64,000 nucleotides of DNA, taken from assembly GCA_964106645.2 (NCBI GenBank), contig OZ067051.1; one strand, 5' to 3'. This DNA is from Podarcis pityusensis (taxonomy: Eukaryota). Below the pieces are notes generated by a model, which worked only from the letters and a program-made list of their open reading frames with translations, was not told the DNA's origin and searched no databases. Positions within the stretch are counted from its first letter, which is position 1. Every line of letters begins with the position of its first letter. This document shows positions 27,236-55,653 of the stretch, in pieces. The translations under genes and the position numbers were made by a program.

Positions 27236-30127
27236 AACAAATTCACAGAAGCTGGTAGGACTGGGTACGTGTTCCAATGTGGGTCAAAATCAGATGTTCG
27301 GTCATTGGGTCTGTGAAGATGGATCTAAAGTGGTGCTCCCAGATATTGTGCTGAGACACAATGATTTGGCACTCAGGATCAAGAGCATAAACCTCTTGAA
27401 AGCGGCTGCTAGGTGGTTCATTTAAGAGTTGTATGCTTTTAGGATCCACCCCATTTTTGTGATTGTACTTTGTTTTAAAACAGTTTGTAATGTTGTATTC
27501 TAGATTATTTTAACATACTATTACTAATTATTTACTGGAGTAACAACCCCCGAATGTGGATGCTAGAATTAGCCCTAATGGAAGAGGCACTTGCAGAACA
27601 AAGCATTAAACACTCTCCCTAAACCCAGAGGGAAGATCTGTAATCCAGATTCAACTATAATTAGTTTTCTTCTCGTTGTATTTTAATTATTTTATATTGA
27701 AAACTACATTGAAAGACAGCCATGGGCAAGTAAGCTGGTTGTAAATTTTTGAACACTACAATATTTCTGGGCATATGAGAATTGCCATCTGTAGCCACTG
27801 GGGTTTCAGGGGAGAGAGTCTGTTTTAATTCTAGGAAATCAAGATAATGACACAAGTTCTTCCTGATTTGTGAGGCTATTTTTAGATAAATATGAGGCTG
27901 GTGTGCTCTGAGCCTTTTCAGAATTGCATGAAGCCTCCCATGATCCCTCCACTGAAATTTGGGCATATGCTATGCCTGTGTGAGGTGCCACCACTGGCAC
28001 TTGTCAGAAGAATTAAATCTAAAACATGTTTACAGCTCTGCTCTAGTCATCAGGTTCCCTTGAGCTTCATGGCTAGATAGAGTTCTTCTTCCTCTCTTGC
28101 TCTGTGAAGTATTTAATTTCTTTTTTTGTTTTATGTGCGTACTTCTGCTTGCAGGTGCAGGCAAGGAAAAAAAATCACCACATCCAGATGTTCTGAAACA
28201 CCCATCGCATACACAATTCAGATTAAGGAGAAAAATTGCATCAGATAAAAGCTGTATTTCAGATGCTGTTTTCTGCTGAGTAGTTAATAAACCTATCATG
28301 TTTCACTGACAATAAGGCTCTTGGACTTAATTTTCAGAAGTCCAGAAATGTTTTTACACAGCCTTAGGCTGCACTCATTTGTTATTGATTTTGCCACCAT
28401 GTTTCACCCAAAGTGAAGGTGGCCCAATTACATCGACCTCCCTTTTGAATTCTGAAAAGTAGAGAAAGACACATCTTTATCTAGAGATATTACGGTTTCA
28501 GGCATTGGTACAGCTACCACGTACTGAGCTGTCGCAGCTCATTACTGAATTAGTTCGACCCCGGGGAGCTTGGCTGAGATTCTGTCTCATGCTCAGAGAC
28601 TGATGCTGCGTTTAAACAAAGAAAAATATGCACTATGTGCCACATAGTTCAAATATTTGAAATAATGTTCTGGTCTGCCAGCAGCAGTTACATTACTGAG
28701 CTCTCTAATCTCATCTTATTAAGCACAAGTTTTCCACGGCGTTTCCACCTAGGAGGGGGAATGAGCGGTGCAGGGCACACGGCCGCAGCCCCTACACCCG
28801 AATCAAAACGGGGCATACTCCACTGGGACACCTCCCTGCACAAACTTCCATGATACAAATCCCACTTATTCCAGTTAGAGAACATTCCAGGGGATAGCGC
28901 CACATGGGCTGGTCCTGTTAGTCTTCTGCTCTACCACCCGCCAATGCCCAAAGACCCACTGTGCCAGAGTTGGCTGCCACACTTTGCCTCCCAAAAATGT
29001 TACCTCTGCATACTCCCAATTCCATGCACAGCTCTTCTCAGGCAGCTGGATGGGGGGGGGGGGGAGAGCCATGATGGGCACAGATTTGTAGCCTGCCAAG
29101 AAAAATATATTGTGTGGTATGTAGGGACTTGTGCATGAAATAACACCCCCAGGCCAGAGTTTCAGTGGACCTGACAGGTCGGCTATTTTTCAGGAAAAGA
29201 AGCCAAAGTGGATGCACAGGCGACGACCCATTTAGGAGCGGCCAAATGATGCATAATCGCAAACACACCTAACCCAGAAGCAGCCCCAAAACGTCATATA
29301 GATGTCACAAGAAGGGGCAGAACAGGCTTATGTGCGCTCTGTTGATGCATGTTGGTATCCAGAATGTATCCCCCGCACAAAATGAGGATTGCCTGTGGTT
29401 GGCTGTTGTGACTCCCACAGAGCCTATCCCACAAAATGTCTCCTCCAAGTGCAAAGGGAAGGCTGACAGAATCATGTAGCTTAGGACAGGACACTGGTCC
29501 AAGCCTCCAAGAGCTCAAAACATGGTGTAACCTAGTTCTTCAGTGGCTGAAACTCCCCACTTTGCTAATACAGTATGGTCATGGCCAAGCTGGTTCAATA
29601 TATGGCAACTCTTGGCCCAGACAGCAAGTTGGAGGGGGAAAGCAGAGAGCATGCAGGAGTTTTCAGTGCTTAAAAAAATGGTGCCTCTAGTGGACTCACC
29701 CCTGGGAGAAAGGACTATGAGAAATTTCTCTCCCACCTGCTGTGCAAGATGAAACAGCTCCACATGCTTCTTTCCACCACTTAAGCTGGTGGAACTTACA
29801 GGAAACTGTAGCATAGGCAGGAGAAGGACCCATGAGAAGAGAGGGATTGCCTCCACTCAGAAAAGCTCACACCTGCCATTAGCGCATAAAACTGAACACT
29901 GTTCCAATGATACATTCACATTTCGTTGCAGTCCGGGGTGTAGTTTAAGGTCTTTTAACTATTTAAACATGGTTTTCCTTCAGTAATTCTGGGGTGGAGA
30001 TGCAAAACAGTTTAATAATAGCCTGGGGGTAAGAAATGAAATGTGAGCAAAACACAAGCTAGCAAAGTGATTAATAAAAACCACACACATGAACAACAAA
30101 ATAATTCATCATATTTTCTTGCAAATA

Positions 30128-30133
30128 TTTAAT
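30128..30133 (-). terminator. Candidate ZNF280D polyadenylation signal ATTAAA
   Basis: About 930 nt past the stop, followed by U/GU-rich sequence on the minus strand. Confidence 0.5.
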
Positions 30134-31063
30134 CCAAAATATGTACATCGGTGTCCTAACGGAAGTTCAAAACATTTATGTTCATTGAAAACAATTCTCA
30201 ACAAGTTCAAAATCACTTTCTGAAAAGATTCATATAGAGCACTTAATTCAGTTTAATACTTAAAAGGCAAGCTACTCTAAATGATGTCACACACATTCCT
30301 TAACCTAACTATGTATAAAAATGATTTTCATGCCATCCCCCACCCCCATGCTTGTTTTACATAAATTTCAACTACGAGTGTATCAATGCCTCTCAGGTCC
30401 TATTCTTTTTGTAACAGTTTACACATTTCCATATTACTTTTTAAACTCTTCCCACCCACCTTGTGTTTTGGGGGCCTGCTGCCAATTAACAAAAATAAAA
30501 ATAAAATGAAGACACAGAGGCCACCACATGCCCTATTTCAAACAAGTAAAGTGTCAGGTTTCTGCACAGCTTGCACACTGGGAAACTCACAACTATATTT
30601 ACTTTTTTAATAATAATTCCACTTTCACTGAAAGTTTAAGAGTAAGCTTATTATCATGTAAGATCACATCAATCCTGAGGTGCCAGACCTTCACACAGTT
30701 TCCTTCCTAGCATGACTTGATGGGACAGGAATGCAACATCAAACCCAAGCGACGGTGGATCAAATGCCCTTTATATAAAAACACTGGTACCCCAAAGTAC
30801 TACAAAGACTGTGGCCCCTATCGGGATCTTACTTTGAATCAAATAAATAACATGTCTCCCTCTTGGCTTCACGGGTTGGGTCACTGCAGGCAATGGTTCT
30901 GGCTTCTGACAGCTCTTTCATATCAGAGGGTCTAATATCTCATTTGTCACTGAGCTTCGGCAGTATTACATAGTCCATGGTTCTGTTTCCCCACTTTCTT
31001 TCCCAATTGGCACCTGTAGGAGTATACACAGCAATTGGTTCAAAGTGATGCAAATATTCTGCT

Positions 31064-33359
31064 TCAGCTTGCTTCATCACTCTCTTCTGCCTGGCTTACT
31101 GGTGACTCCACAGGGCTAGCAGGGCTGCTCTCTTCAGAATCAGCAGAATCCTCTAGTTCAGAACCTGGCTCAGCCTTCTTTGCTGAAGGTGGAACGCCAC
31201 CTTTCTGGAGAATCTCTGTAGCTTCATATTCAAGGACCTCTGATGGTGTCAGAGGTTCCAGATGAACACTGCCTTGCTCACTCGCATCAGAATTCACAGA
31301 TTCAGGTTCACTTCTCCTCAGAAACTGTTCAAAACTGACATCTTCATCAGATGCCAATTTTGAGTGGTCAGAATTTATGTCTTCTAGCTCAGCTTCATCC
31401 AAATCAGCCACCTTTGTCTCGGCAGCAAAGACTGCATCCTTTGAACTTTGGAAAGAGTTGGTTTTATTATCTGAAGCTTTGGGGGATTTTCCTTCTTCTA
31501 TCTGATCACTATTACCCAAATCATCAGATTCTGTCCTTTCACAAGAGGTCTCAGTTGAACTGGCTTGGGATCCTGAACAGGAGTCTTTCACAGCTGATAC
31601 AGAAGTACTTTCTTTATGCTCATCAGTTTGATTTTCAAGATGGTCCTTTGAAGCATCTTCTGCAGAGCCTTTTGCACAGACATGGGGTTCTAAAACGGAG
31701 GATTCTTCTCCAGCTGATGGACGTTCTTTACACTTGGCAGCTAAACCTTCATCGCTTTGATCTGCAGGAGTCTCTGCATCTTCATCTTCCATAGGATCTA
31801 TGGGATCATTTGACCAGTCTGAGAGTCCTGAACCAGAGAGGTTTCCTAGAACCAAAGTCGATGTACTTTCTTCACACTCAGCTGCTGAATAACATTCACT
31901 GTCCTGATTTGCAAGGCTGCCTACTGTGTCTTTGCTCACAGGGTCTATGGAGTCATTTGAGGAGGCTGCAAATCCTGACTTGGAGTTTTCTAGAACTGAA
32001 GGCAATAGATTTTCTTTAACTTCTTGATTTGCAAGAACTGAAGGCAATGGATTTTCTTTAACATCTTGATTAGCAAGGTTACCTGTCTCTCCTTGTCCTG
32101 AACCGTCTTTTGAGCAGGCTTGAAACCCTGGATCAGAAATGTTTTCTAGACATGGAGATTTCTCTTCTTTGCATTTGGCCACTAAAGGAGCTTCATCTCC
32201 TTGATTTGCAAGGTCAGTTGCAGGGTCCCCTTCTTCTGTAGAGCCTTTTGAACAACTATTATGTTCTGAAATGGAGGAGTCTTCCATGGGTGACACAAGC
32301 ATATTTTCTACACAAGCAGCAGCTAGAAGACCTTCATCAGTTTGATTTGCAATGGCACCCGTGTCCTCTTCTTTTGCAGGATCACTTGAGCTGGCTGAGT
32401 CAAGTCCTGAACCAGAGTTTTCTAGAACCAAAGGCAGTGTGCCTTCTTCACACCCTGCAGCTAGAGGACCGTCATCTTCTTGATTTACAAGGTCAACTGC
32501 AAGGTCCCCTTCTTCTGTAGAGCCTTTTGAACAACTATTATGTTCTGAAATGGAGGAGTCTTCCATGGGTGACACAGGTATCTTTTCTACACAAGCAGCA
32601 GCAGCTAGAAGACCTTCATCAGTTTGATTTGCAATAGCACCTGTGTCCTCTTCTTTTGCAGGATCACTTGAGCTGGCTGAGTCAAGTCCTGAACCAGAGG
32701 AGTTTTCTAGAACCAAAGGCAGTGTGCCTTCTTCACACCCTGCAGCTAGAGGACCATCTCCTTGATTTGCAAGGTCAACCGCAAGGTCCCCTTCTCCTGT
32801 AGAGCCTTTTGAACAAGTCTGATGTTCTGACATGGAGGAGTCTTCCATGGGTGACATAGGCATATTTTCTACACAAGCAGCAGGTAGAGGACCTTCATCA
32901 GTTTGATTTACGAAGCTCTCCATGTCTGTTTTTTCTGCAGGGTTTACTGGGTTATTTGAGTTTTCTAAAACCGGAGATGTTGGATTTTCTTCACACTCAG
33001 CAGCTAAAGAACCGTCTTCATCACCTTGATTTGCAAGGTCATCCGAGTTCCCTTCTCCCAAAGAATCTTTTGAGCATGCTTGGAACACTGGGCCGGTAGT
33101 GTTTTCTGGACATGGAGGTATCTTTTCTTTGAACTCAGCTGTGAAAGGGCTTCCATCCCTTTGATTTCCAAGGCCCTCTGTCTCTCCCCCATCTACAGAG
33201 TCTATGAAGTCATTTGAGCAGGCCTGAAGCTCTGAACCAAGACTGTTTTCTAGAACAGGCAGTTTATTTTCTTCACACTCAACTTCTAAAGAAGCTTCAC
33301 CGCTTTGATTTTCCAGATGGTCCTTATCTGTTTCTTCTGTAGTGTGTTTTATTTCCGGG
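31064..33359 (-). CDS. ZNF280D: ZNF280D terminal exon, about 764 aa acidic repeat tail ending in the conserved SEQGSVHLEPLTPSEVLEYEATEILQKG block
   Basis: ttttttcag acceptor at 33360-61; frame open from 33359 into the 674-aa ORF; C-terminal motif matches recalled ZNF280D. Confidence 0.92.
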
Positions 33360-33578
33360 CTGAAAAAAGCAAATCCAACAGTTTAGTACTTTAAGAAAAC
33401 CTACTGCTTATATTTTAGTAGTGCCTTAAAAAAAAAAACAACCCTTGAAATTAAATAATTCCTCCCTTACTATAAAGCAGTAAGAGCTCAAACCTTAGGA
33501 TAAATTCACCCCACTTTGTCCATTATTGTGCATTAAGACATAGAAAAGAAAGTGAAGGTGAAGAGATGGACTTTAAAA

Positions 33579-33580
33579 CT

Positions 33581-33611
<31 letters not shown>

Positions 33612-33632
33612 CTCTCTCTCTCTCTCTCTCTC
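33579..33632 (+). repeat. (CTTT)n(CT)n microsatellite
   Basis: Read directly. Confidence 0.9.
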
Positions 33633-34105
33633 AAATATGCTCAGGCCCCAACCTTAAAAACAAGTTACAAGGTGAGAGACATCAGCTCAGGCAGTCTTAT
33701 AAACCAAGAGCCAACTCAACCCTCTGAGTGCTGATTCTTATGTAGACAAAAAGGCACCATCCATGAACAAGCATGAGGGAGTCCAAGCATAGGGGGACGA
33801 TGACGACGACGACAACACAAAAGAACTAAATTAGGACTGATCATGCTGAGAAGGCATGGAATGTTTTTCTTTCTTTTCTCGTCATTTTTGGCAGGAGGCA
33901 GGATAGAGAAGGGAAAGAATAAACCAGGAGAAAGGAGTAGATTACCCTGAAAAAGGACATGACTTTCTGGAATCATGAAGAAGAGCAGCATTATAAACTG
34001 CAAAAGGTTGTTGCAAGTTCCCACTTGGGATACTTAATTTGGAGATCAGTTTGGAACTGCAATATATTGGATTCACTTTACCTTGTGAGAAGACACAGTG
34101 CTTAC

Positions 34106-34161
34106 CTTGCAGAGATGGATGTTTCTTTTTGCTCTTCAGGTGCACTGAGCCTTGGAATTTC
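34106..34161 (-). CDS. ZNF280D: ZNF280D small exon (EIPRLSAPEEQKETSISA)
   Basis: cag/gtaagc; phase 0 to 2 fits neighbours. Confidence 0.8.
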
Positions 34162-35405: not shown

Positions 35406-35454
35406 CTGGGATGTTTCTTCACTTCCACTGTTCAATGATGTATCACTAACCAGG
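35406..35454 (-). CDS. ZNF280D: ZNF280D small exon (LVSDTSLNSGSEETSQ)
   Basis: ttag/gtagtg; phase 2 to 0 fits. Confidence 0.75.
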
Positions 35455-37743
35455 CTAAAGAATGAAACAACATCTGTTATTGTTGGTCAATTTTTAATTA
35501 TTTTTTCTTTTGTAAATCACCATGAGTGCTGCTATTGGAATAGAAGGAAAAGGTATGAATTGCTCAAATTAAGTAAATTAATTTCAATTTAAGAGGAAAT
35601 TCCACTCCCCTCTACTGTTTTTCCCATTCAACTTTGGGGCTAAACAAAATCTGACGGGAGCAGCCAGGCTTGTTTAATCCCACCCAATTATATAGAAATG
35701 GGACCAACATGTGAGCAACCAGCATGGCAGCTCCTGTTCACACCTAGGTTAGACTAAGCTTCTTGGGCAAGGCCTGCATTTCCTTTGCCTCTGCATTCTG
35801 TAAAGCACTAATGCCCAGCAACTGCGCTTTCTGAACTGCAAAGTTGTTGCCATTCCTGAACCAATTACCAAAATGCATACCTAAAGGTTCACAGATTTGC
35901 TGTTCTGTGGAAAAAATGGGCTCCCATTTCCCTGCCTATTTTTAACTGAGATGTTCATGGAAAAAGTCTTCCAGCCATAACTCTGCATTTTTGTACCGCA
36001 ATGAAGGGCTTTTCTGTAGTGTTTGCTGATAAATATAGACCTCAATCTATCACTTAAAGGGTAGATTTTTCTGCAAATATTTCCCCAGGGCATACTTCAT
36101 TAGTTATACATTATTTAAATGTATTGACTTCTAAACCACAATAAACAAGCAACTTATCACATCACCATGATTGATTTTCGTATTTTATGCTAGAACAACT
36201 CTACTGTAGAAAGAGCAAGAAGTGCACCTCTCCTATAAAACCTTGTAGACTCGTGATTTTTAACATACAATTTAACCTTGCAAAGGCTTTTGTTTAAAGA
36301 AATTTCTGGTGATTGTATCTTCTTTGTTGATGTGGCACTGAAGTGAATTTTAATCCGCTGAAGTATGGAACTGCACCTCTTACACCCGGGTAGAAATTTT
36401 ATTAATCATGAATTAAATGATTAATGACCCTACTAAGGCTGCAGCAACATACAAGGTACTTGGCATATTAAGGAGCTGCATGTGTTTAGTTATGAGGGCG
36501 AGAGCCAGTGCTAACAGGCTGACATAACTCATTCCATTTTTTGTAACTTTAAAAGGATGTATGTCATTAGCAACCATTTGACAATTATCAAAAGATTCCT
36601 CATAGGTTGGCCTTAAAAGCATATATTTAAAAGTACATCTAACTTCTTGTAATGTCTTATTGATGACTTTAAAATACTACATAGAACCAGCATTACATGT
36701 TCTGCAGAACATGCAAATCACATTTATATTGTGAAACATTGTTTATTGTGAAACATGTTTATTGTTTCTACTACGTAGTGTGGGGAAAACAACCCACCAT
36801 GTGCAAAACATGTTACGTCAAAGCCATATGGAAGGGGAGGGAACTTTTACAATCAATACTGTTACTGAAAGTGACCAGAGAAAAGAGACTTCCTTATCTT
36901 GCATTGCTATATATCAGCTTTGTGGGGAACCCAAGTTGCCAAATGCAACTGATACTCAGAAAGGAGAAACAGGCTTTTATCTGTGCCAGCAGCTGGTCCA
37001 GAGATGCAGCATACAGAAAATATTGTTTTATTTACATTGAAGGTTGATAATTTGTTACTGTGGTTGAAAAAAAAGTATGATAAACTGTCTTATGTTAAAA
37101 CTTGTCTGACATAGCAAAAATGAAATTAAAAAAAATCTGTATATGGGAGACACTAAACATATTTAATTTGACCAACTAAATAAGAATACAAGCTGCTGCA
37201 ACAATGGTAAATTTCACATCCCTCAAACAGGTTAGAACTACAGGAAATAGGTGGGAACTCATTTTTAACAGGGTGTAACAGAAGGCATTTGAACAACCAG
37301 CAACAGGCTCAGGCTAGGCTCGACAACAGCAAACTACTTCTTCATACAAAGCATAATATGCTTTTTGGAACTCACTATCACAAGATAGGAAGGTGGCTAA
37401 CAGTTTCGCTCAGATGGTTTTAAAGGTGGATTTAGACAAATCATGAAGAAGAGCTTTATCAACTGTTACGATTGCTGGCAGAAACGCCAGATTCAGAGAC
37501 GGTGTACCCTGAATGCCAATTGTGGATGGTGGGGGCAGCAGCAGAGAAGGGCTGCTGCCTTCGTGTCCTGCTTTGAGAGGCCCTTTGGGGCATCAGGCTT
37601 GGCCACTCTGGGAAAGAGGAGGCTGAATTAGATGGGCCCCCTTTGGCCTGATGCAGAGGAACTCCACCGGCTTGGGTGGCTGCTTCCTCATTAATAAGGA
37701 TGCATCAGAACACTACAATTTATTAGACAAAGCACTGTAATTA

Positions 37744-38674
37744 CCGTATTTCTCGCTCGATAACACGCACCCGACCATAACACGCATGTAGTTTTTAGAG
37801 GAGGAAAACAAGAAAAAAAATATTCTACACGAAACAGTGGATGTATGATTTTTGTGGTTCATGCTGATCTGATGGTGAGTTTGGGGTAGCCCAATGCAAA
37901 AATCCTGAGGATCCATGTGGATCTATGTTTGTAACCACGTTTTTGCACCACTGCGGCCCCAGGCAACAGTGGGTGCGTGATTTTTTTGGTGCAAACTGTA
38001 GCCATGGATATGCTATGTGATCTGATGGTGAATTTGGGGTGACCCAGTGCAAAAATCCTGAGGATCCATGTGGATCTGTGCTTTGTAACCATGTTTTAAG
38101 TGGGGAGGGAAGGAAAAGCACTCAAGGGACAAGGAGCACGCGTGGAGCAAGCTCTGCTTCTCTCCCTCCTCCTCCCCCCCTTAGCGAGCTGAAAAACTTT
38201 GCTGGAGGGACAGAGAGCCTGCTTGCTTTAAAGGAGCCTACCGGACAGGCTCCTTTAAAGCAAGCAGGTTCTGCTTCTCTCCCTCCCTCCCCCCCCCCCC
38301 CCCCCGCTTAAGCGGCTCCTCTCCCGCTTTGCTCCTTTAAAGCAAGCAGGCTCTGCTTCTCTCCCTCCTCTCCCCCTTAGCGAGCTGAAAATCTTTCCTG
38401 CTATTTCCAGCAAAGCGGGAGAAGAGCCACTGAGTGGGGACGAGAGAGATACAGAGAGCCGAGTGTAAGCGGCTCCTGTCCGGTAGGCTCCTTTAAAGCA
38501 AGCAGGTTCTGCTTCTCTCCCTCCAGGCACTCTGTCCCTCTCTCCTCCCCATTCAGCGGCTCTTCTCCCGCTGGAAACCACGGAGGAGGGAAGCATTCGC
38601 TCTGTAACACGCACAGACATTTCCCCTTACTTTCTAGGAGGAAAAAAATGCATGTAATGGAGCGAAAACTATGG
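37744..38674. mobile_element. Tc1/mariner-type non-autonomous element with internal repeats
   Basis: TA-flanked imperfect TIRs CCGTATTTCTCGCTC / GAGCGAAAACTATGG. Confidence 0.8.
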
Positions 38675-39072
38675 TAGACTTGGGTTGTGATTCCAAAAGA
38701 AGGCACTTTAGGGATGCTAAGCAGAGATTTAACACCCCCCCCCATGAACAACTCACTATCATACACACACTCAAACACATATGCTTCAAATACGGCTTGA
38801 CACACAGTATTGGGGGCTACTATTCGTAAAACATAAACCTTAAGTCCCCAAAAACACTTGAACCAAGTTGCGTGGGTTTTTTTATCCTGGCCTTTGTGTG
38901 TATGTAATAAAGCTTAATAAAAATATTTAAAATGGAATTTGCATTTTTTTTATCTGGAGTACAACCAAACTTGCTTCTGTATCATAGAATAGGTATCTAC
39001 TCTTTGTTTCTATGCTGTAAGACCATCAACACAACCACCCAACTGACAAACAAGCTAATCTCAGAAACTTAC

Positions 39073-39109
39073 TGAGAAAGGTTGTCGGCAACCAGACAGT
39101 CCGAGGGAA
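39073..39109 (-). CDS. ZNF280D: ZNF280D small exon (VPSDCLVADNLS)
   Basis: cag/gtaagt; phase 1 to 2 fits. Confidence 0.8.
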
Positions 39110-39202
39110 CTGGAATTAAAGAGAAGATCAGTAGTGTTAAAAACCAACAAAACGACAACAGGCTAACATCTGGCTTATGTCAGAGGTACATGAGCCACAT
39201 AC

Positions 39203-39321
39203 CATTTTCGATAATCACTTGACAAGTGTGAGTAAGGTTTTCGTTCAAGTGCGTAGCCATATTATCCAAGCCGGAAGCATCAGTCAGGAACTCACAATTA
39301 AGACAAACAAGAGTAACACCC
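39203..39321 (-). CDS. ZNF280D: ZNF280D exon (GVTLVCLNCEFLTDASGLDNMATHL..HTCQV)
   Basis: ZNF280D zinc-finger peptide; tag/gtatgt. Confidence 0.95.
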
Positions 39322-39995
39322 CTAGGGGAAAAAGGAAGAAGTAACCCTGAGTGCAAGGGAGGCAAAAGGTTACAAAAGGCTTCTTCTGACCATGTCATGT
39401 GAAGTCAACCCTGCACTGGACTAATATATACATATAACTCATTACATACTAGCTGGTACACATGTTCGTTCCAAGAATTTCTCATAAGCACTGCATATAT
39501 GAATAATATTATTGGAAAGAACAAGACTACAGAAGGAAAGGTTGTACTTTTTTCGGTAAGCAAAGTTATCAGTGCCCGCCCCTCCCTTGATGGTTTTCCT
39601 TATAACTTCTGGATCTGTGAAATTGCTGATATGTGGAAAAATGGATTCAAAACAACAAATCATGATGATGAGCAAAATTTAGCAAACAAAAGAATCAGTA
39701 TCACATCTCAAAACATCAGAAAAATCAAGAATTTTGGCTTGGATATTAGTTTAGGGTTGTCTCATTTTATGAAGAAAGCGTTGCATTCTGAAAACAAAGC
39801 TTTATATAAGAAATAAAAGTTAGATGGAATCCAGATAACATGCGCACATCTTAAATCCAATTCAGCAGTAACTGAAATTGCAATCTGAAATACACTTGAA
39901 GAGAAAGCCTCATTAGACACAGCGGGACTTATCCAAGGACTGTGATGCATGTTGCAAAAAATGTACACCTTAAAAAAGAAAAAGGAGATGGTTAC

Positions 39996-40058
39996 CTCAG
40001 ATCTTCTGAATGAGTCTTATAAATCCAAAATCGTTTACTCTGTCGAGCACTGTGAAAA
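39996..40058 (-). CDS. ZNF280D: ZNF280D exon (FHSARQSKRFWIYKTHSEDL)
   Basis: Resembles recalled FHSNRPSKRFCIFKKHSENLR; tag/gtaacc. Confidence 0.9.
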
Positions 40059-41264
40059 CTACAAGATAATAAAATAGCTGAAATGGACTTCTCAAAGAAA
40101 TGTCCCGTCCCCCCATATCATATAATACAACATTAAACAATAAGACTGCAATCGAAGGTATAGAAACAAGCAGATGTCTAGTCATTCCTGAGCCCAAAGA
40201 TTCTGCTGCATGACTGGAGATGCTTCTACTAGCGAAGGAGGGTGTGCCACTGATTTCAGCCACTATCCAGACACCTCTGCTAAGAACCGGAGATTCCTCC
40301 AGAGCAACTTTTGAGAGGAGAGCAGAAGCAGTGCTTCCAGGGTGGGTTTACAAAAAGCTAAAATATAACAAATTGTAGCATGTTAAAATGGCAATACTTT
40401 TAAAAATGTCTGGGAAATGTTAAAGGGCCTTCACTTCAGTAAGTATGTTCACATGGAGGAAGTTTTCCCTCTTTGAAATGGGGGAAAAATTTGGCCTTCA
40501 AGCACCCTGTTCACCCATATGCTCTAGGTCAAAACCTGAATTTTTTTAAATGGGCACGAGGAACAGGAGCTTTTTCAGTTGTGGCATCAATGCTTCAGAA
40601 TGCTCTCCCTAGGAAGGCCTTCCAGAACCAGGTGAGAACCTGATTCTTTGAAGAGATCTCTGGGGAAGGCTAAATCAACTGAAGGTTTTTTTTACTTCTG
40701 ATAAGCTGGATTTTCTTCACTGCTTTTCTGACTACTGATTTTATTACAGAATTTTATTGTGCTGCTCTGGTATTGCTTTTATTATTTTTCTATTTTTACG
40801 CTGTAATCTGCTTTGAGTTCCTTAGTGGAAGAAAGCAGCCTAGCATTTATTTTTAAAAAAGCATAAATGCTAATTTATAAATCATGGAACAGAGGACACT
40901 AAAGCCATGCAGAGCCCCAATCTTCCGTTAATGCAGCTGTGGCATTGCAGTATAGCACTGGCTGAGAGACAGTATGCTCCTTGCCTGCCTCTTCTCTTCC
41001 TGAGCACAAGCCCCCAGCCTCAGCTTTAACCACACTGAACGCTAACCAGGCTTTCAACCACCAACAAACAGGTTTCAAATATTCTTTAAGGGGGAAACCT
41101 ACCCAGGAGTAATCCTGGTTAGGGTCAGTGCCCACACAAGGGGAGGTGGTGTTAGGGTTGCACTGAGGCACAGACTTGCTGCAATATAAAAAAGAGCAGA
41201 AATCTACCAGAACAGAAACAAACTACAGACATAATTTAACAACTTGAAGCTGAATATTTCCTAC

Positions 41265-41402
41265 CTCATCATGTGATTCACGTAGGCTTTACTGCAGCTT
41301 GTGCTGTATCTGCATAAACTACAGCGAACATAGGCTGGAAAGTGGCTGGCGAATGTCCTTATATCAGAATAACACTCAATGCACTTCTGAATATTCGGGC
41401 AT
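41265..41402 (-). CDS. ZNF280D: ZNF280D exon ([36 protein letters not shown])
   Basis: ZNF280/POGZ-type finger; tag/gtagga. Confidence 0.95.
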
Positions 41403-42261
41403 CTAATATGAACCAATGTCAGAATTAGTATGCAGTATTAAGAAAAAAGTTAAGTTCCCATTTCAAATCATTATTTCCAGAAAAGCTTGCTTAGTTAATA
41501 TCACTGGCCTGGAGAAAAAGAATCTGGCTTTTGAATTCTGCTTTATAATGTCGCCCCATCTTTAGAAAGAGGCTTTCCAGAGGACCTTCCACGGTGGGAG
41601 TCAATGTGGCACAAGGGGACGAAGTGGGAAGGGCAGCTGGGAAGCTCCAAGGAGCATATGGCATTCTGAAAATAGCCTTCTTTACTTCAAGGCCTTATGG
41701 ATACTGGGCAAACAGGCTTGCAATGCTTAACCAACTGAAAGCAGTGGAAAAGGTTTGAAAATGTGTACACAGGTTGCAACTGTCAAAGGTTCTTCATATG
41801 AACATCTTCCTCTCTCTTGTTTTTATCAGCAATGGGGCAGAGGTACCCTCCACGTGGCTCCAGCTCAGGCACATGCCCGAGGCTGTTTTTACTGTAAATG
41901 TCTTTTATCTGCAGAGTTTTTTACCGCTACTGTAGCTGAGAACCATTACAAGACTCTGATCAATACAAGAAGCTGATCTATTGAAAGAAATTCCTACTTA
42001 AACTGCTGCCTCTAAAGGTCCTATTTGGGAGAAAGGTAACCCTTATACTGGGGAACTGATCCAAGTGACACTTGCATCGCCAACCCTCTAACGATCAGAA
42101 CATACCCACCCACTGAACAAGGCCCCAACAGTTGGCCATTCTAGTCAAAATTAATCTTGTTACCATTCTATTGATTCAGAAGAACTCAAGTTCTATTTCC
42201 TTTTTTATTCCAATCAGTTAACATTTAAAACTACACTCTGGAAAGCTACCAGAAGACTTAC

Positions 42262-42560
42262 CTTAGATTATTTAATGCTGTATTTGCAATTTTATTGTTT
42301 CTTTTGCTGCCGCCGCCACTGCTACTGCTGCTGCTGCTACAACTGTTATTGTGGGTGGTCCCCAGACCTTGCTTTTTCTGTACGCTCAATGGCTTCAATT
42401 TTGGCTTTACTTTATTTGCATTCGTTTTGTTCTGAGTCGTTTTAGCATTTGTCACTTTAGCTGCACTGGTGGACAAGTGTAAAGTAGACGCACTTGGGAT
42501 GACAGGAGATGCAGTCGCTGATCCAGGCTGAAGAGATCCAGCAGAAGCTCTGATGGTAAC
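42262..42560 (-). CDS. ZNF280D: ZNF280D exon (VTIRAS..poly-Ser..TALNNL)
   Basis: KVTIRAS junction motif; tag/gtaagt. Confidence 0.93.
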
Positions 42561-43330
42561 CTAGAAACATGAGACCCGGTTAACTCTTTCCTAAATGAAT
42601 GGCAATCATTTATCTTGCTGAAAAGACTCGCAAGAAGACTGCATGGATGACACAAGGCTGAGCAGTTCTGAGCAAGCTGCACTGCAGGGGGCTGGAATAA
42701 ATGACCCTTGGTGTACCTGCCAATGCTACAATTCTGTTATTGTGACCCTCAGACTACTTTGTCAGAGGCAATGGCTAGCAGTATGCCCACCATGAGATCA
42801 TTGCCCATCCAACCACAGCTAGAGCCTGTGCTGCAATACACAGTAAAGCAATGACGAACACACACACACCTATGTGCAAACTCCCCTCCCACCTGTTCAT
42901 ATAAAGCACACAAACACAGCAAGGGGAAATCCATTAAAGGGTCCATGATGGCTGAAACTATCTGTTTTGCATAGTGTATGTCCAAATTTATTTGTAGCTG
43001 GTCACCCACCTAAGGTCAGGTCAGGCAACCCAAGCAGGACTGAACTTCTGCAAATCCAGGAGAACAGAGCAGATGCCACCACAACAAAGAAGACCCCTGT
43101 CTGCTGCAGATTTAAATCTGAGCCCCAGGAAGGTTTTAAATGTTGTTAAAAGGTGCCTAGAGTTGAACCCTTCTGCAAGTCTCTAGAGAGCCTTAGAATG
43201 ATTTTCAAGTCCCCTCCCCACAAAAAAACCCACCAGCAGTGGGGAACACACATGAACACACACCACTCTCTCCTGCCATTTCCCTGTAGCCATTTTTCAG
43301 AATAAACATTAAATGATGCTTTAAGCTTAC

Positions 43331-43465
43331 TTTGGTTCCTGGAGGCAATCCCTCTAACTGAGCAGGTTTTTTAAATGTCCGGTGATGCTGAGATTTGTGA
43401 TCCATTTTTTCTTTGCATGTCAAGAACTGGAGTCTACACTTGGTACAGCGATGTACTCCCTTTTT
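43331..43465 (-). CDS. ZNF280D: ZNF280D exon ([33 protein letters not shown])
   Basis: C2H2 finger, ZNF280 family motif. Confidence 0.95.
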
Positions 43466-44300
43466 CTTTTTTAAAAAAAGAAAAATATATTTAAGCCAAA
43501 ACATACTGATGAAATGGATAATAGAAGCTTAACATTCCAGGAGGTTTCAAAAACAAACAGTGCAAAAGTGATGAGCAGTGGCTGCAAGCAATAAAGGACT
43601 AACTGTATTCAGTATCAACAAAATCCTGTACTAAGTTATTGATAGAAAATAATCACAAACAATTCACATTAATTACACACCATCACATAAGGTTGTATCG
43701 AATGTGATGTTAAGTACACTTGTTCCACTAGTGAAATGTTTGCACCAAGGGAACCTTGCTGCCCCAAAGAAGGCACCAAGTTACCAGCAATGCGCTGCAT
43801 AGTGAGTTTCTACTAGCACAACTGTTGCACTGGATTCCTGTTAGGCAGGATTAAAACTCACAATCACACTAGCAGACACAGAATGTTGGATACAGCATAT
43901 AGTTTCCAGCTCCTTAAACCAGACCTTTGCAAGAAAACAGTATAGGTTAAGGCACCATCCATTCCTACTATCAAACACTTCTTCCAAGTTCTGTCTGCCA
44001 CCATCTCACCTTGGAAACATTTTTTTTTAAAAAAAACCCTTTGCATTAGCCATATTCAACTTTAAATTGACATCTGGAGCTTTGTGAACGTAGCTGAACT
44101 TTTCTCAAGTATGCTAATGGTCAGCAAATGTTCACTGTGGAAAAGGCTCTAAGCTCTATTGTTACCATAACTTATAGAAGACCAGGGCTTGGGGGGGGGA
44201 GGGGGATTAACAATTTATTAGCTACTAGTTGCTTCTGCAGAGACATCTTACATCCCTCTTGCCTAGTGCTTATACTCCAAAGATAATCAAGTATTTTTAC

Positions 44301-44447
44301 CTGGTGTCTCAGGAAATGATGCATATATGGTGCCCCAAGTTTAATAACTTTGAGGCAAAATGGGCACAGCAGGCTCTTTGTATTTTCATGAACAGATCGA
44401 AAGTGTTTTTCCACATCTGAAAATGCTGATGATCTGTAATTGCACAC
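44301..44447 (-). CDS. ZNF280D: ZNF280D exon (VCNYRSS..HENTKSLLCPFCLKV..HQ)
   Basis: C2H2 fingers; tag/gtaaaa. Confidence 0.96.
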
Positions 44448-44546
44448 CTAGAATGGAAAAAGAGATGGACTGCCTTGAAGCAACATTCTTTAGAAACAAG
44501 TCTTTGACAAACAGCCATGCACAAGGGGGAGGATGCTCTGAGGTAC

Positions 44547-44647
44547 CTGGCAGACGTAGGGCATCTCCCCGGGCTTGTGATTGTCCTTCATGTGCTGCAA
44601 AAGAACTTGCTCGGTTTCAAAAGATAGTTCACATATTTTACATAGAG
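44547..44647 (-). CDS. ZNF280D: ZNF280D exon ([32 protein letters not shown])
   Basis: ZNF280 signature finger. Confidence 0.97.
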
Positions 44648-44965
44648 CTAGAAAAGAGCAGAAACAAGAGGTGAACTTTTTTTTCTTAATCGGAACCACG
44701 GTGGAAGACAAAGTAGATGGTGCCTATTAATCCAAGGACAGTTCTCAAGTCTTTTGGCAGCCTAATTTTTAAATCATGCTGTGGCAAAAATAGTTGCCTA
44801 TTACTTTGCTCCCAATGAAAAGTAGAAATGCTTTTAAGCTGCAAAAGTCAAATGTTTCTAACCATAATATCCCATATCTCTTTGAGCTGCTGCGTGCCCA
44901 TGCCCCAACTAGGGCAGAGTGCATGTGCCCCCACCATGACAAAATAGCACGGCTGCCGTCTAGAC

Positions 44966-45151
44966 CAGGAGTCGTCAACCTGGTCCCTACCGCTCACTAG
45001 TGGGCGTTTCAGGATTCTAGGTGGGTGGTAGGGAGTTCTACAGCACAAGCTGAATTCTCCTCCCATCGAGCACTGGTGGGTGGTAAGGAAATTTTAGCAT
45101 CAAGAAAGATGCATTAGTGGGTGGTAGGTATAAAAAGGTTGACTACCTCTG
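44966..45151. mobile_element. hAT/Charlie-like MITE
   Basis: TIRs CAGGAGTCGTCAACCT / AGGTTGACTACCTCTG; TSD gtctagac/atctagac. Confidence 0.85.
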
Positions 45152-45199
45152 ATCTAGACTGATGGCTGCTGTACAAGACACAGCATCTGAGAAACTTAC

Positions 45200-45357
45200 T
45201 TGATGACTCATGAGGGGTATGGCTGCTTTCGATGTGGCACTGGAGTTGGAAGGGTGTTGGAAACTGACGGTAGCAGTGCTGACAGGTGGTGTGACTTTCC
45301 CAACTCTCACTATTCTGTTTCTCCAGCTCCAAGTGATGCTTCATGTGGTTCATAAAC
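45200..45357 (-). CDS. ZNF280D: ZNF280D exon ([34 protein letters not shown])
   Basis: ZNF280 signature fingers. Confidence 0.97.
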
Positions 45358-45950
45358 CTGGGAGCGACACAAAGAACAGCTCAATAGACCACACTTTTTT
45401 TAAAAAAATAATTAATGAATAAACTAGACAGGTGCTAAAGACACTGCCATAAACACATATTTAGCATATTATGTTTTTTAAAATGCCCTTTAATGGACTG
45501 CAGTGCCTTCCTCTGAGCAAGCTCCTCAAACACGTGGAAGGAAATAGAGGGAAAGAAAAACCAGTAACCTAAAATACGCTGCTATCACTATTTATCATTT
45601 CAAGCAGATTAGTGCAAGTGGGATCTCAAAGATTATAAATGAAAAATAGGGCAGCTTCTCCCGAGAAACACTGTCACTCCCCCATTCCCAGGGATTACAT
45701 TTCTCTCTTATGAAAGGACTCCCAAAGATCAACTCTCAATCTCTAGTATGATCTTCAGACTGTTCTGAGTGTAGCATTAGGAAAACACCATTTTGTGAAA
45801 GAATGTAAAATCAGCTTTGCACAAAAAAACAAAAACAAAGGGGGAAAACACTACCTGTAGACATCTTACAGTGACACTGTGAGCTACACACTAGCCAAAC
45901 CTGGGCCCAAAGTTTTTATCACATATACATTTTTCAGGATATAAAAATAC

Positions 45951-46177
45951 CTGATATTGCTTTTGAGAAGCTTCATGCAGCTGGCACACTTGAAGGTCGT
46001 ATGTGTCTTCTGCTCCTGACGCACCTGCTGGACGTTACCCTCATGTTTGCCATAATAAAAGTCATTAACTAACATGATCAGTTTTCCTTTTTCAGTTTCA
46101 GCCATTTTAGATGATGTCCCTGAACTGTCTGTTTGGGTTATTCCCAGAAAGGTATGTGCCATATCTGGACAGCAATA
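45951..46177 (-). CDS. ZNF280D: ZNF280D exon (YCCPDM..KLIMLVNDFYYGKHEG..FKCASCMK)
   Basis: KLIMLVxDFYYG motif. Confidence 0.97.
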
Positions 46178-47284
46178 CTGAAAGAGAAGCAAGTTAAAGA
46201 ACAACTAAACCATTTTCTCTTTTAAAGAAAATAACTGAAGTATAGCCTAGAACCTAACAAAAATATGTTTGTAAACCCTCCCCTCCCAACCCAAGACCTG
46301 ATAGTTTGAGCCCAGGTAAGTTGAATGTATGTAAGTGGGGCCGGAAGTTTTAACACATTTGTAACAAAGCAAGGGCCACAGATTTCAGATAACTTCTAAG
46401 GAAACACACCTAGAATTGTAATGGTTTTGTAACTTGAGATCAAGGGTACTTAATTCCACCCAAATGTGATTAGCATAAATACTGATGGAGTCCCCAATTC
46501 CATAAACCATCTGTTATAAAAATGCATCTTTAGCTTACTATGCATTACATAACAATGGCACCAGCTTTTGACTTCTATGGGATGTACATATAAGGAAGCA
46601 ATGCAAAGAATCAAAAGCAACAAGAGAGAAAATTTAAGATCTCTTCATAATATATTTATAATGAAGTTGGAATGGTTTCAAGGGAAGGGGCTACTAAATA
46701 ACAGATTCAAGCTGTATAGAATTCTGCACATTTATACAATAAATCCCAAACTTCTTTTTAACTCTGTACTAACAGGGGTAATACTAGTCAGGTTAATTTA
46801 ATATGTATTTTCTCTAAGAGTTACAATATCCTTAATAACATACATAGAAACAAACACAGCAAACAGAAAATGCTGTAGCTGAACATTCTGCCATTTAAAG
46901 TGCTCTTCACACAGGGAAAACCACAAGCAGCCATAAAAATTAATATGCAAAACGAAGTTATTTTTTCAAAGCAAAAATCATGATTCTCACGAAGGGCAAT
47001 GGTTGGCCTCTGGGAGAACAGAGTTCTTGGCTAGATGGGCCTTTGGCACGACTCAGCAGCCAGGCCCTTCTTCCATTCTTATTTATCATCTTGACAGCTA
47101 GGCATGAAATTTGCTTTTAAAAGCGGATAATGTTCAAAGCACCCAGAACAGCAACTAACCAGAACCATTACATGCTTAAGTATAATTAACTCTGAAGTTC
47201 TATCATCTTTAAAATGTATTAATTCTCAATGCCACATCTATGATTTCATTTTGTTCCCCTTCCTCTGCCAAAACAGGTCCTTAC

Positions 47285-47388
47285 CTTTATGTGATTTTTT
47301 AATGGCTCCAAAAGATTGAAATGAATATTACACTTTGGACATGCTTGTGGAAAAGGTGCTCCATGCTTAACATTGCTCGAAGCAATAC
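47285..47388 (-). CDS. ZNF280D: ZNF280D exon (..FPQACPKCNIHFNLLEPLKNHIK)
   Basis: CPKCNIHF finger; cag/gtaagg. Confidence 0.95.
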
Positions 47389-49934
47389 CTGTAAAAAGGA
47401 AAAGTATACCCTATGACTTAATTATCACTTCTGAACAGACACTTTCTTCAAATTTTCAAATTTATGATGTACCGCTTGAGTAACTATGACAAACATACAG
47501 AGTTCACCAACAAAAGCAGATAAGATATATAACGAGTAACAGTATAATTAGTTCTTTTTAAGCCTCTTCTCTTTGTGTGCATATTCCTCAAAAGGCAACA
47601 TGTAAGTCATTTGATAGCTTGCCTGTAACAAGCAAAACATTTCCCCAAGTGGCACAAGAACTGTAGTTTTGGTAAACGGAAAGAATTTTTTCTGTTGCCG
47701 GCTGTCAATGTGTTATCACTAATTAATTTAGATATGCAAAAGTAGCCTAATTACTTTTTGGACTTATATTTATGCTTGACCTGCTGCTTCAAGAGCTCTT
47801 AGGTCGAACACAGCAATGCTTACATCCATGGGCCTTCTGAAAGGGTGATAATTTTGAGAGAATAATTGCATTCTACATGCTATCAAAATCAGTTGCTATG
47901 TTCCAAGACTCTTAAATTTGTAAGTATTTTTACACTTTATATTCTCTGTGTGCTTTGCAAAAATAAATCAATCCTCTGGGGGCCTTGCAAAAATAAATCA
48001 ATTAAAATATAAATACAAAAACTAGAAATTACTAAAAGGCACAAAATCATAAAAACGGTATAAAACAGTTGACAGGATTAAAGTGCAATCTTTAAAGCTT
48101 GGTAAGATGTGTAGATACCAAGCAACTCCTTGTAAAGAGAAGGATTCACAAAGAGAGGTTTAACATAGGCAGGGCAAGGGGGCAATTGTCCCAGCACACA
48201 TTTCAGAGAGGTGCTTCCAGGTACCCTCGAGACAGGTTCCCTCATTAATGCAAACCCCGCAAGTGTCCCTTGTCCCTCTCCTCACTCTCTGCCTGGACCA
48301 GGTAAGAGGTTCCTACTGCTCAGTTCTGCAAGGGTTAATAGCAGCAGAAAAGCTGTCATTCCTAGAGCTGAAGGGAAGGCTGCAAGTGAGTGAGGAGCTT
48401 CTGTTCTCTGTCTTGCTTCCCCTGTGCCTCCTCGCAAAGTCGTGGAGGCAGGTAATTGGGGGACAGGGATATGCCAGATCAAGGGGCAGAATCAGAGCAG
48501 GGTGCTGGGAGAAAGTGAGGCAAATGGGTGGCAGCAACTTCCCACCCTGAGCAAATAAAAGGCATCGGCAGGGGAAGCAGGTGGTGGGAGCGACACTGCT
48601 TTCCTGCATTGAATGGCCTCTGGCCTCACTCTCTTCTGTTCAAACAAACCTAAGTGAACAACACTCAGTTTCCCCTGAAGCTTAATAAATATATAAATGC
48701 AGGAGAAGTCCTTCACTAACCTGCTAAAACTAATGGTACAGTCCTGCCTATCTTCAATTGAAAACCATTACTGAAACAGCAAGCCTGTGTTTGCTTTTTT
48801 TAAAAAAAGAAACCTAACCATAGCAAATCCTTAAGTATAAATCTGTGTTGAGAAAGAAAAGCTCTCTGCTGCATGGCTAGCAGTCAAAACTTTGCCACTT
48901 CCCTTCCTCTTCCCCACCACCCAATCTCTCTCTCTCTCTGCTCTGCAGCTTGGTGGAATACTGGCATTTGCTCAGTACCATGTTTGTCTATTTCCAGCAT
49001 GGCCTAAATTTAAAATGTTTCAATCTAAGCCCTGATGTTTCACCCTCAGTTTAATTGAAAATCACACTGCATTGTGCACCTTCAAACAACACACTTATAC
49101 AAGCGTATTTCTCTCATTGTTTTTCTGTACTCTGGATGTGAATGCAAAGTAAGCATATTAGGGACACAGCCAACATTTGCGGGGGGTGTATTCTAGGCAA
49201 AATGGCCACCTTATACCTGGAGTTCCCAATATGGCACCATACAGCTCCTTGGTGCATGTCCAGGCCCTTTGCCCTCCCATTGTTAATGATTTTTTTAGAG
49301 TTGCTTTTTCAGCTGAGGACGGTGCTGAAGTGACTGCAAAGTGACATACAGGCCACCAGCAACACCCTCCCACAAAGAAGTTTTGAAAGTAGCTTATTTT
49401 AATGCTCCCATCTGTGTTTCAGGGAGTGGTCACCGAGAGCTGCTTACCGCTTGGTCCTCACAGGTTCTGTTCACAAGAGCTCAGGGTGTGCACCCCCTGG
49501 TGTACACCTCCACCCCAGCTGCCCAGTCCACCAAGGGGGTGCAACACTTGTCCCGCCCTGGGTGCTAGAAACCCATGCTACGCCCCTGGATCCCCAGTTG
49601 GGGTGCCCTCTCTGTGGAAGCCTCCCACCTTTGCCTGGGGCAAGGGAGTGGTACCTGCCTGTCTCTGGCTTCCTAGGTCCAATGCCCCAGGTTTCTACAC
49701 CTACATTACATGTTCTCTCATTGTTCTAGAAAGTTAATCTTACATTTTTAAACAGTCACCCTTTGCACCAAAAATTGTGGAATTCTTCTTGGACTGGGAA
49801 AGTTGCTGCACCAATGCACCAATGACACTTAATTTTTCCTGTAAAGACCATCTGTTCTGTTTTTGAAAAAACATTTCTGATATATCTCTTCATGAAAATG
49901 CTGTAACAGCTGGGACAATAAGACGCTTCCCTAC

Positions 49935-50066
49935 CTTTCTGAAGCAATGATGTGTCATTTGGAGATATAACTGAAGGTGAATCACTTCCAGAAACTGCCT
50001 CATCAGCCTTGGCCTTTTTTGGATTAATACTGTGAGCTTCAGAAGTGGAAGGACGCTTGGACAGGC
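49935..50066 (-). CDS. ZNF280D: ZNF280D exon (LSKRPSTSEAHSINPKKAK..)
   Basis: KRPS..NPKK basic motif; tag/gtaggg, phase 1 to 1. Confidence 0.9.
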
Positions 50067-51224
50067 CTACAAATAGTTTTGAAAATTAAGTAAGTCTTAA
50101 TTTAATATACTATTGCTAAAACCAACCCAAGCAAGCCTTGACTTGTTTTCTTCTCCAATACTCTGATTCCAGCTGCTTCAAGCTGCAGAGTCCTTCAAGG
50201 TGTGGTAGAATTAGGAGGATCACTGCCTTTGTGGAGGAGTCTAAGTCCTCTAACCTTGACTAATTTATCTTAGAGCAGGAAATCAGCATCCCAGAAATGA
50301 GTACAATCGTCAACAAAAATGGCACAACCCATAAAACCGTATTTTGCAAGGTCACTGTGAGCGGAGTTATCAAGTCATAACAACTGTGCAAAATGTTATT
50401 TGTTTGAATTAATTAAATTTGATTGTTTTATTAGCTTTAGGACATACATGCCATTCAGCATCAGTAGACGTATCAAGAGTTTATTCAAGACAGAAGCACG
50501 TAATTTGGTAAACTGTTATTTTTACTGAGCAGGCACTAGCGGATGATTTAAAAGATCACAATGCAATGCAAGAGAACAAGGAAAGGAGGAAACAAGGCTT
50601 CAAGAACATTGATCCAAAGCTTTTTAGGAATTTAAAAGTGAAAACCAGCATCTTGAATCATAACCAGTTAATGTGCTAGTTCACTGACATGTGCTCCATT
50701 CACTACCCCACTGTGAGACAGCCTGCTACATTCAACTCTAGCTGAAGTTTCTGACTAGTCCAAGGGTGTCCAAGGCAAAGGGCATTGCAAGGTTTTGGAG
50801 GCTATCACCAGGTGAAAATCTGCTGTGATCTGAGCTTTACAATGAGAGATGCACTTTTCCTACCAGACAAAAGTTGGTGCAGCTGCTCCTACCCAGAGGC
50901 AGAGCAACCTGGTCCAGCACCCAGAACGGTGCTCGTCCGAGGTGCTGCCGATTGGGTGTTGGCATTTTGACACACACACACACCCCTTTGGAATGGCACC
51001 TGGAGCGGACCGCCCCACCCCCACCCTGGAACGCGCCTGCTCCTACCCACTGAAACAATCCAGTAAAATTCAGTAGCTCCTCATGCTTTCAAGAAGGCCC
51101 AGAAGGGCTGAATCCAGTTAATCCAGTAACCATGATTACTTCAGCCTCCACCAGTAGGCCCATATCCAGTTCTCAGCCATGTCTAGAATTCAAAGCAGTA
51201 CTGAGGTTGCAGGAGCCTGTCTTA

Positions 51225-52680: not shown

Positions 52681-53838
52681 TGAAATATAGCCATTATTAC
52701 AAGGAGCTTACATGGCTGAATGCTCCTCCACAAATAAAATAAAAATAAATTATCACCATGTAGAAAACTGGCCACTTAGGAAGTCTGGTTCTAATCTGGC
52801 CTTCCTCAAAGTCCCGTCCCCCCCCCCCCCCCGATATGGAAGAGCCATCAGTTATGAGAAGTCTGCAGGTGGAGGTTTGCACAGTTTAGCATCTCAGTTG
52901 GAACTAGGCAAGCAGCAGGCAAGTATAATAAACTTAGAATGACGTATCAGTAGCACGCTAGCAAAGAAATAAATACTCACATGTGACTGCATACATACAT
53001 GGTGCTGGGAAATAAATAAATAAATAGAATCACACCTGGAAATGGCAGGAGAGTTCTTGTGGCTCACGAGGAAAGCCTCCCCGGAGCCAGAGGAGGATGT
53101 CAGTGAAGGCAGATGAAGCCCTCAAAAGACCTAAGGTGCAGCGGGGCTTTGTTCAGGCTGCTCAGCCTCCCTGCCTAACAGCTGATGTGTGGCGAAGCGC
53201 AGCAGCTGCCACCCGCCACTTTCCCACACGCCCTCTTACTGGCCCCAGAGCTTCAACTCTAATTGAAGAGAGAGTTGTATGGAAAAGGAACTGTAGAGCA
53301 GGGGGAAATAGGCATTTAGAGGCTTTATAGAGGGTGCTCCCCAATTTATGCAATTTCATTTATGTGTGTGGGCACCCGGAACATAACCTCTGTGTAAGGG
53401 GGGGGGCTGCAAAGCTAGAATAAATTCAACCAAGAATTCAGAGGAAGTCTAAAATAAAGATGCCTTATGTTCAAAAACCTGGCAGACAATGCATATCAGA
53501 AGACCAGCAACTCCATCATCAAAACAGCTCTTCAACAATACAGTCAGGTGCCAGAATAAGGATTTCAATGTCTGTTTTTATATTAGTTATAATTATGGAG
53601 GCTCAAGCAATCCTCTTTACTTCGAGGATCATTACAACTATGTCCAATAACCCTTAATTTATCATTATGATCCTAGTGCACCAAATGTATGCACAATTTA
53701 AAAAGCGCCTCTCCTCTCCCCCCAAAAAACAGGAAAACACATTTTATTGGTTGTTTTGGCAATGCTTCTTTTTTCTTTTTATTATAGATTTGCTTTTAAT
53801 GATATGAATAATAAACTTTGAAAATGTACTAGTCATAC

Positions 53839-55556: not shown

Positions 55557-55653
55557 CTGCCACAAAGAATTATGAAATATATTAAACTCCACCACATTCA
55601 GACTATAAGGAGTTCAGTTTTACAAAGTCACCAGATTGAGTACATCAGAATAC

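Follow-up and report, generated by a model that had tools for sequence, protein, structure and literature searches.

A squamate tandem-repeat array in the last exon of ZNF280D, probably a tolerated acidic tether ahead of an invariant C-terminal block

What is a long, acidic and repeat-built segment doing near the C-terminus of a zinc-finger protein, and from where did it arise? The question is raised by a 64,000-nt stretch of Podarcis pityusensis DNA (assembly GCA_964106645.2, contig OZ067051.1; its full length is hereafter called the window), in which a stop-free frame on the minus strand (33382-31064) spans the last exon of the ZNF280D gene. A sequence-only reading of the window had assigned the gene, described its last exon as one open frame of 2296 nt, and proposed that the repeats constitute a lineage-specific, frame-preserved domain, possibly a histone-binding module. 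The exon itself was as described: the last coding exon (33359-31064, minus strand), preceded by its acceptor AG at 33361-33360, comprises 2296 nt, i.e., the final base of a Ser codon that the intron interrupts, then 764 codons and the stop codon. Assembly of 19 GT-AG-type exons gave a protein of 1553 aa, the length previously estimated, which shares 1537 identical residues with the 1566-aa ZNF280D record of Podarcis lilfordi (P0001). In this record the DUF4195, zf-POGZ and zf-C2H2_Z280C_D domains all scored above cut-offs; this architecture, the best matches of the window protein (named ZNF280D/Z280D or unnamed C2H2 proteins) and the C-terminal block common to them bear out the assignment to ZNF280D. 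Squamate ZNF280D proteins are already annotated in public databases, and human ZNF280D has fewer than 1000 aa. The P. lilfordi record has nine residues that are absent from the 1553-aa assembly but are matched by a 27-nt stretch (53005-52979), which may be an alternative micro-exon. Elsewhere in the window, an exon at 16033-16413 matches the TPH domain and fits a neighbouring gene that we take to be MNS1, presumably in conserved ZNF280D-MNS1 synteny. The features of the ZNF280D tail are as follows.

35406..56535, minus strand: 17 upstream coding exons, encoding the DUF4195 N-terminal region, the C2H2 core, and the zf-POGZ and zf-C2H2_Z280C_D fingers (domain search)
34106..34161, minus strand: penultimate exon, 56 nt, donor for the array exon (assembly and RNA joint)
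33360..34105, minus strand: last intron, 746 nt, GT...AG (joint 33359-34106; zero depth at 33529-34101 in three contig runs)
33580-33631: GA/GAAA microsatellite within the last intron (repeat finding)
31064..33359, minus strand: last coding exon of ZNF280D, coding part (open frame; spliced contigs and reads cover the exon)
31520..33322, minus strand: tandem array, exon residues 13-613, with 13 full units and a 14-aa partial copy
Array unit starts, minus strand: 33322, 33178, 33043, 32920, 32779, 32641, 32497, 32359, 32218, 32083 (partial), 32041, 31921, 31774, 31645
32194..32909, minus strand: young part of the array (units 4-8), a two-unit 282-bp block x2.6, 92% alike (TRF)
31992..32077, minus strand: 42-bp (14-aa) micro-duplication within unit 10 (repeat finding and anchors)
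31346..31519, minus strand: acidic linker without repeats, to which a stretch in the tails of turtles, birds and tuatara corresponds (sequence comparison)
31199..31345, minus strand: C-terminal block of about 50 aa (FEQF...EPLTP...EILQKG), conserved in all vertebrate-type matches
30102..31063, minus strand: 3' untranslated region (RNA contig ends at 30102-30143)

The array consists of 13 full units of 40-49 aa (about 46 aa) and one 14-aa partial copy, in agreement with the earlier estimate of some 14 NQ-anchored units of about 45 aa; the 15 [ND]Q anchors of the exon correspond to the 13 full units, the partial duplication and one position past the array. Periodicity was evident from autocorrelation peaks at lag 94 (0.217) and lags 46-48, the maximum among 300 shuffles being 0.136. 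With a lacertoid-free unit profile, built from 59 units of 7 other squamates, the 13 window units scored 25-53 bits, and none of 200 shuffles reached 10 bits. The young 282-bp dimer block accounts for the two units that the window has in excess of Lacerta (13 vs. 11). The exon is rich in S (14.5%), E (13.7%) and D (8.8%), as had been noticed, and carries a net charge of -131. Two other properties attributed to the units held in part: Cys residues are regularly placed but not conserved, the two Cys columns reaching 49% and 65% among 123 units, and between-copy gaps in the DNA alignment are multiples of 3 in eight of ten cases, the remaining two (2 and 4) lying in one old pair and being in frame only as a sum of 6. 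No Pfam family matched the array exon, and the single ESM Atlas match of the array (0.76) was uninformative; among 1.84 billion representative proteins 20 matches were found, all with ZNF280D-type C-termini, of which just three extend into the repeats.

The array is real and expressed. Four of the 24 runs listed were aligned over positions 29900-35600; they come from related organisms (share of words 0.29-0.55 in the three indexed runs), one being recorded as single-cell RNA and three having a guessed type, which were accepted as RNA because their introns were empty and their joints canonical. The joint 34106-33359, with GT-AG ends (CT..AC on the plus strand), was present in all four runs, by a single read in the raw-read run, so the junction that the sequence-only reading had singled out for checking does splice the array in. 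Run X2 reached a depth of 161 over the joint, 163 across the distal array and 173 towards the 3' end. Contigs break within the young block and none covers the entire array; in run X7 depth was 50 on the 3' side vs. 25, with one empty bin inside the young block. Skipping of the repeats through a downstream acceptor, one of two outcomes named beforehand as contrary to the proposal, was rejected: no canonical joint lies inside the array among the 15 joints listed of 24, and just one AG within it has a pyrimidine tract of similar quality (32868), which would not keep the frame. One odd, non-canonical joint (30506-33421, TG..TA, 21 letters, one contig) is likely a chance match. Among the indels listed, eight further rows lying outside this count, all five in the exon are of 3 nt and three of the seven in the untranslated region are multiples of three. 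An assembly or annotation artefact was rejected, given the presence of the array in proteins of 25 species and in the spliced RNA contigs.

The distribution of the array is sharply bounded. The squamate sample comprised 25 species (geckos, skink, girdled lizard, lacertoids, anguid, iguanians and snakes) gathered from three homologue searches, two of which contributed the best 120 of 426 and the best 120 of 522 matches, and spacer length was taken as the distance between the last finger and the EPLTP motif. Bird, turtle, crocodilian and tuatara ZNF280D, members of the SUHW/ZNF280-POGZ family, have the same DUF4195, zf-POGZ and Z280C/D fingers, the same C-terminal block and the same spacer position. 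Their spacer, however, measures 165-269 aa in 140 measurable proteins (birds, 165-241 aa in 131 measurable of 133 entries, isoforms included; turtles, 172-269 aa in 7 entries; gharial, 205 aa; tuatara, 203 aa), vs. 459-762 aa in all 25 squamate proteins, and the unit profile finds 0-1 match in each outgroup protein vs. 3-13 in each squamate protein. Thus, the second contrary outcome, an equally long array in most amniotes, did not materialize, and the claim of lineage specificity stands as to absence from tuatara, turtles, crocodilian and birds; the lineage, though, is the whole of Squamata (25 of 25 species) rather than this species or genus. No named mammal record was found among the homologue matches. 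The lacertoid-free profile detected no unit in proteins P0014, P0020, P0023 and P0024. In P0014, another vertebrate-type protein (1325 aa), the acidic spacer spans 368 aa (residues ~895-1262), contains 94 D/E and does not match the squamate unit; it looks like an independent lengthening of the corresponding spacer.

The same profile yielded single matches in gharial (17 bits), turtle (13 bits) and stork (12 bits), with shuffles at 6.3 bits or less. The tuatara segment scored nothing with it and was assigned by its position in the protein; in the unit tree the gharial, turtle, bird and tuatara segments nevertheless group as one clade (support 0.98). By these comparisons the array units derive from one segment that is single-copy in birds, turtles and the crocodilian, and given this single-copy coding homologue a transposon or satellite origin of the unit is unnecessary. 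From its restriction to squamates and from the grouping of the tuatara segment with the outgroups, the array would have been born after the tuatara split and before the divergence of geckos, a window of about 250-200 million years ago. Old orthologous units, including the terminal and some inner ones, are common across squamate families, the deeper branches of the unit tree being weakly supported, and young same-species clusters were found in the window, Elgaria, Euleptes and Gekko, pointing to separate re-expansions in several, at least four, squamate lineages. Two gecko proteins (P0006 and P0147) and that of Elgaria (P0004) have their own runs of near-identical young units, with a source unit different from that of the dimer in the window. 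The process may be pictured as tandem copying, in squamates, of a ~46-codon segment, located where the last ZNF280D exon begins, that remains single in turtles, birds and the crocodilian; unequal crossing-over on the squamate stem would have started the array, and growth would be continuing by the same route.

The array is also the part of the protein that changes fastest. Of the 7 regions compared, the spacer ranked last or close to last in identity in all complete species pairs; between Rhineura and Hemicordylus its identity was 0.48, whereas the fingers reached 0.93, the C-terminal block 0.90 and other disordered regions 0.70-0.77. In the outgroups, the single-copy segment likewise evolves fastest, or nearly so, within its protein. 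The dN/dS check proposed by the earlier reading was run on unit pairs and run variants, rather than on orthologous DNA, and gave near-neutral values of about 0.7-1.0: pooled dN/dS was 1.04 over 78 window unit pairs, which are non-independent and partly saturated, and 7 synonymous vs. 17 non-synonymous run variants gave an omega of 0.7-0.9, neutrality not being rejected, on the basis of 24 coding rows among the 40 rows shown, 166 further rows lying outside this count. Divergence was equal at the three codon positions (0.27, 0.26 and 0.28).

Against this background, acidity is the sole property of the array for which the sequences suggest retention, and a modest one. Polarised changes were counted in nine species triplets, which share outgroups. 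Cys showed 15 losses and 8 gains, matching the neutral expectation (p 0.65), and K/R and aromatic changes also fit it. For D/E, 61 losses stood against 40 gains, where neutrality predicts a loss share of 0.73 (p about 0.007); gains were above neutral under three base compositions (p 0.005-0.007), although a net loss persists. The D/E fraction of 0.22 compares with 0.16-0.20 in simulations, with z-scores of 1.7, 3.1 and 4.8 from the shallowest to the deepest of three depths; the signal thus depends on the depth assumed, and the depth indicated by four-fold sites (0.19) is shallower than that indicated by the codon positions. Aromatic residues make up 3.3% or less of the array in all 25 squamates.

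What keeps a near-neutral segment of this length open? The conserved block that had been noticed in the same exon, downstream of the repeats, was confirmed, with 26 invariant columns in a 28-sequence alignment that includes distant vertebrate-type proteins and an identity of 88-100% in all species pairs. Since this block sits downstream in the same exon, it is a sufficient explanation of the open frame through the array; the frame is indeed preserved, as had been claimed, but this is no sign of a repeat function. The block had no Pfam, genuine PDB or ESM Atlas match. Its ubiquitin matches are an artefact, 6.7 bits per repeat having been summed over polyubiquitin (single-stretch E about 130), and no POGZ or LEDGF-complex chain appeared among its 18 PDB matches (E up to 10). 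The consensus of the TND-interacting motif is an acidic FxGF. A relation of the block to the TND-interacting C-terminus of POGZ was not supported, its FxxF being without Gly; the available part of PMC10570030 does not give a consensus for that motif. The block is probably the truly functional element of the tail and the best candidate for an undescribed ZNF280D binding motif, and it may deserve more attention than the repeats.

We therefore consider it likely that the array is a tolerated, acidic and disordered tether linking the zinc-finger core to the invariant C-terminal motif; the evidence argues against a new domain and in favour of a repeat-expanded disordered linker. The acidic and disordered character expected of the tail was supported: by charge and hydropathy the array falls among disordered sequences. 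This measure is crude, the finger core lying near its dividing line and the C-terminal block also on the disordered side. Frameshifts and stops in the array would be removed by selection, since each would deprive the protein of its C-terminal block, and weak selection may act on acidity and low hydrophobicity with no motif involved. The likely effects would be a longer reach for the C-terminal motif and a partial electrostatic shielding of the basic (+29) zinc-finger core. One observation counts against a merely tolerated tether: no squamate among the 25 species has returned to the short state (minimum 459 aa), a persistence of about 200 million years, and such an absence of reversion is not required of a purely tolerated spacer.

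That none of these squamates has lost the array would fit a selected electrostatic regulator, in which the acidic repeats fold back on the basic fingers and tune DNA or heterochromatin binding, copy number setting the activity in each lineage; we regard this as unlikely. Whole-protein net charge moved from near zero in outgroups (-4 to +20 in 10 proteins) to between -15 and -110 in 20 squamates, the finger core staying near +30 in all (+25 to +34; +29 in the window), D/E is kept above drift, and the re-expansions in at least four lineages would suit it. Acidic disordered tails of the HMGB1 type exert autoinhibition on DNA-binding domains and can make the search for targets faster (PMC10250230, in its available text), and like them the array has a large negative charge (-0.17 per residue), is likely disordered and is joined to a basic DNA-binding region. 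However, their D/E residues are consecutive (PMC10250230, same text), whereas those of the array are scattered (15-24%; 22% in the window, where the longest run is 4), spread over about 600 aa and internal rather than terminal. Moreover, net charge varies about seven-fold across squamates and decays in snakes, and any existing array would re-expand repeatedly. Squamates might have made a conserved, neutral, HP1-associated zinc-finger protein strongly polyanionic, with array copy number as an evolvable rheostat and the tail autoinhibiting the fingers, a scenario to which we give a low probability. If true, it would reset where and how long ZNF280D occupies heterochromatin, and would amount to a shift in chromatin regulation that defines an order, with charge rather than sequence under selection.

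At the other extreme, the array could be wholly neutral baggage, with selection on frame alone and acidity as a remnant of the ancestral unit. An omega near 1, the neutral behaviour of K/R, aromatic and Cys changes, the lack of any significant composition feature at the shallowest simulated depth and the comparable rate of the outgroup segment all agree with it; the excess of D/E gains, the low aromatic content in every species and the short spacer never regained do not, and we find it quite improbable. Were it correct, the array would have little importance beyond annotation. Very improbable is that each unit forms a small binding or metal-coordinating module multiplied for avidity, be it histone-binding, as the sequence-only reading had suggested, or a Cys-based fold: a recognisable pattern in 123 units, with several columns at 60-78%, a spacing of some 20 residues between two Cys columns, and 25 CK2-type sites would fit it, but no column exceeds 78%, NQ and Cys are lost in gecko and snake units, no PxVx[LMV] motif (the PxVxL class of HP1 ligands) occurs anywhere in the 1553-aa protein, and no Pfam family or usable ESM Atlas match was found, so that, with the near-neutral omega and the array being the fastest-changing part in nearly all pairs, the sequences do not look like a folded tandem-repeat domain nor, given the poorly conserved and neutrally lost Cys, like a metal-binding repeat, and a folded, metal-binding or histone-reading module is unsupported.

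A tether of this kind would belong to a protein whose partners are partly described. In the available portions of the respective papers, mammalian ZNF280D associates with CBX/HP1 proteins, no DNA motif having been obtained (PMC11601254), it is enriched together with HP1 on H3K9me3 peptides (PMC4330348), and it is termed uncharacterised and reported to be proviral in human cells infected with varicella-zoster virus (PMC12313529); its paralogue ZNF280C is a recruiter of SMCHD1 (PMC9295756, likewise). The growth of the array resembles that of long exons, which expand via repeats encoding disordered regions, likewise with in-frame indels, tandem-repeat growth and disordered products (10.1101/2024.11.03.621752, in its available text). 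In that account, nevertheless, the exons are internal, the indels are mostly short and the species are mammals and flies, whereas the ZNF280D array lies in a terminal exon, grows by a ~138-nt unit and defines an entire vertebrate order. Most human protein tandem repeats keep the number and order of their units (PMC3995336, available part); similarly, terminal and some inner ZNF280D units are orthologous across squamate families, but unlike those mostly frozen repeats, units here have been gained repeatedly and recently. The main text of a study on squamate amino-acid repeats (PMC4751654) does not mention ZNF280. In the open-access literature, supplements aside, we found no description of the array among the papers listed, and a mention in a comparative-genomics table is possible.

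Other proteins, nuclear or structural, carry comparable arrays. The MDC1 PST, Treacle, Ki-67 and involucrin repeats are single-exon, head-to-tail arrays in disordered regions with lineage-specific copy number, and several of them keep an invariant motif or a known partner. Our searches of Pfam and of representative proteins gave no sequence relation between the array and these repeats, and the ZNF280D unit, unlike several of these arrays, is without any invariant residue.

The array provides a clean molecular marker of Squamata, present in 25 of 25 species vs. no outgroup, and a well-dated natural experiment in the growth of a disordered linker, with one ancestral unit and a known order of duplication. 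Net charge spans a seven-fold range while the zinc-finger core stays constant, which makes selection on charge or length, vs. sequence, testable, and the tail points to an unannotated, invariant C-terminal block of 50 aa.

Further elements were observed in the remainder of the window. Within the intron between exons 35454-35406 and 34161-34106, an element of about 230 bp (35049-35280) displays 34-nt terminal inverted repeats (85% complementary) and TA flanks, with very high depth in all aligned runs, and is presumably a high-copy MITE of the Tc1/mariner type. An intronic short sequence occurs twice in one open frame at 38258-38626 and is probably a small interspersed element, and a 40-bp minisatellite (x3.7, 92%) lies at 62859-63007, upstream of the gene's GC-rich 5' end.
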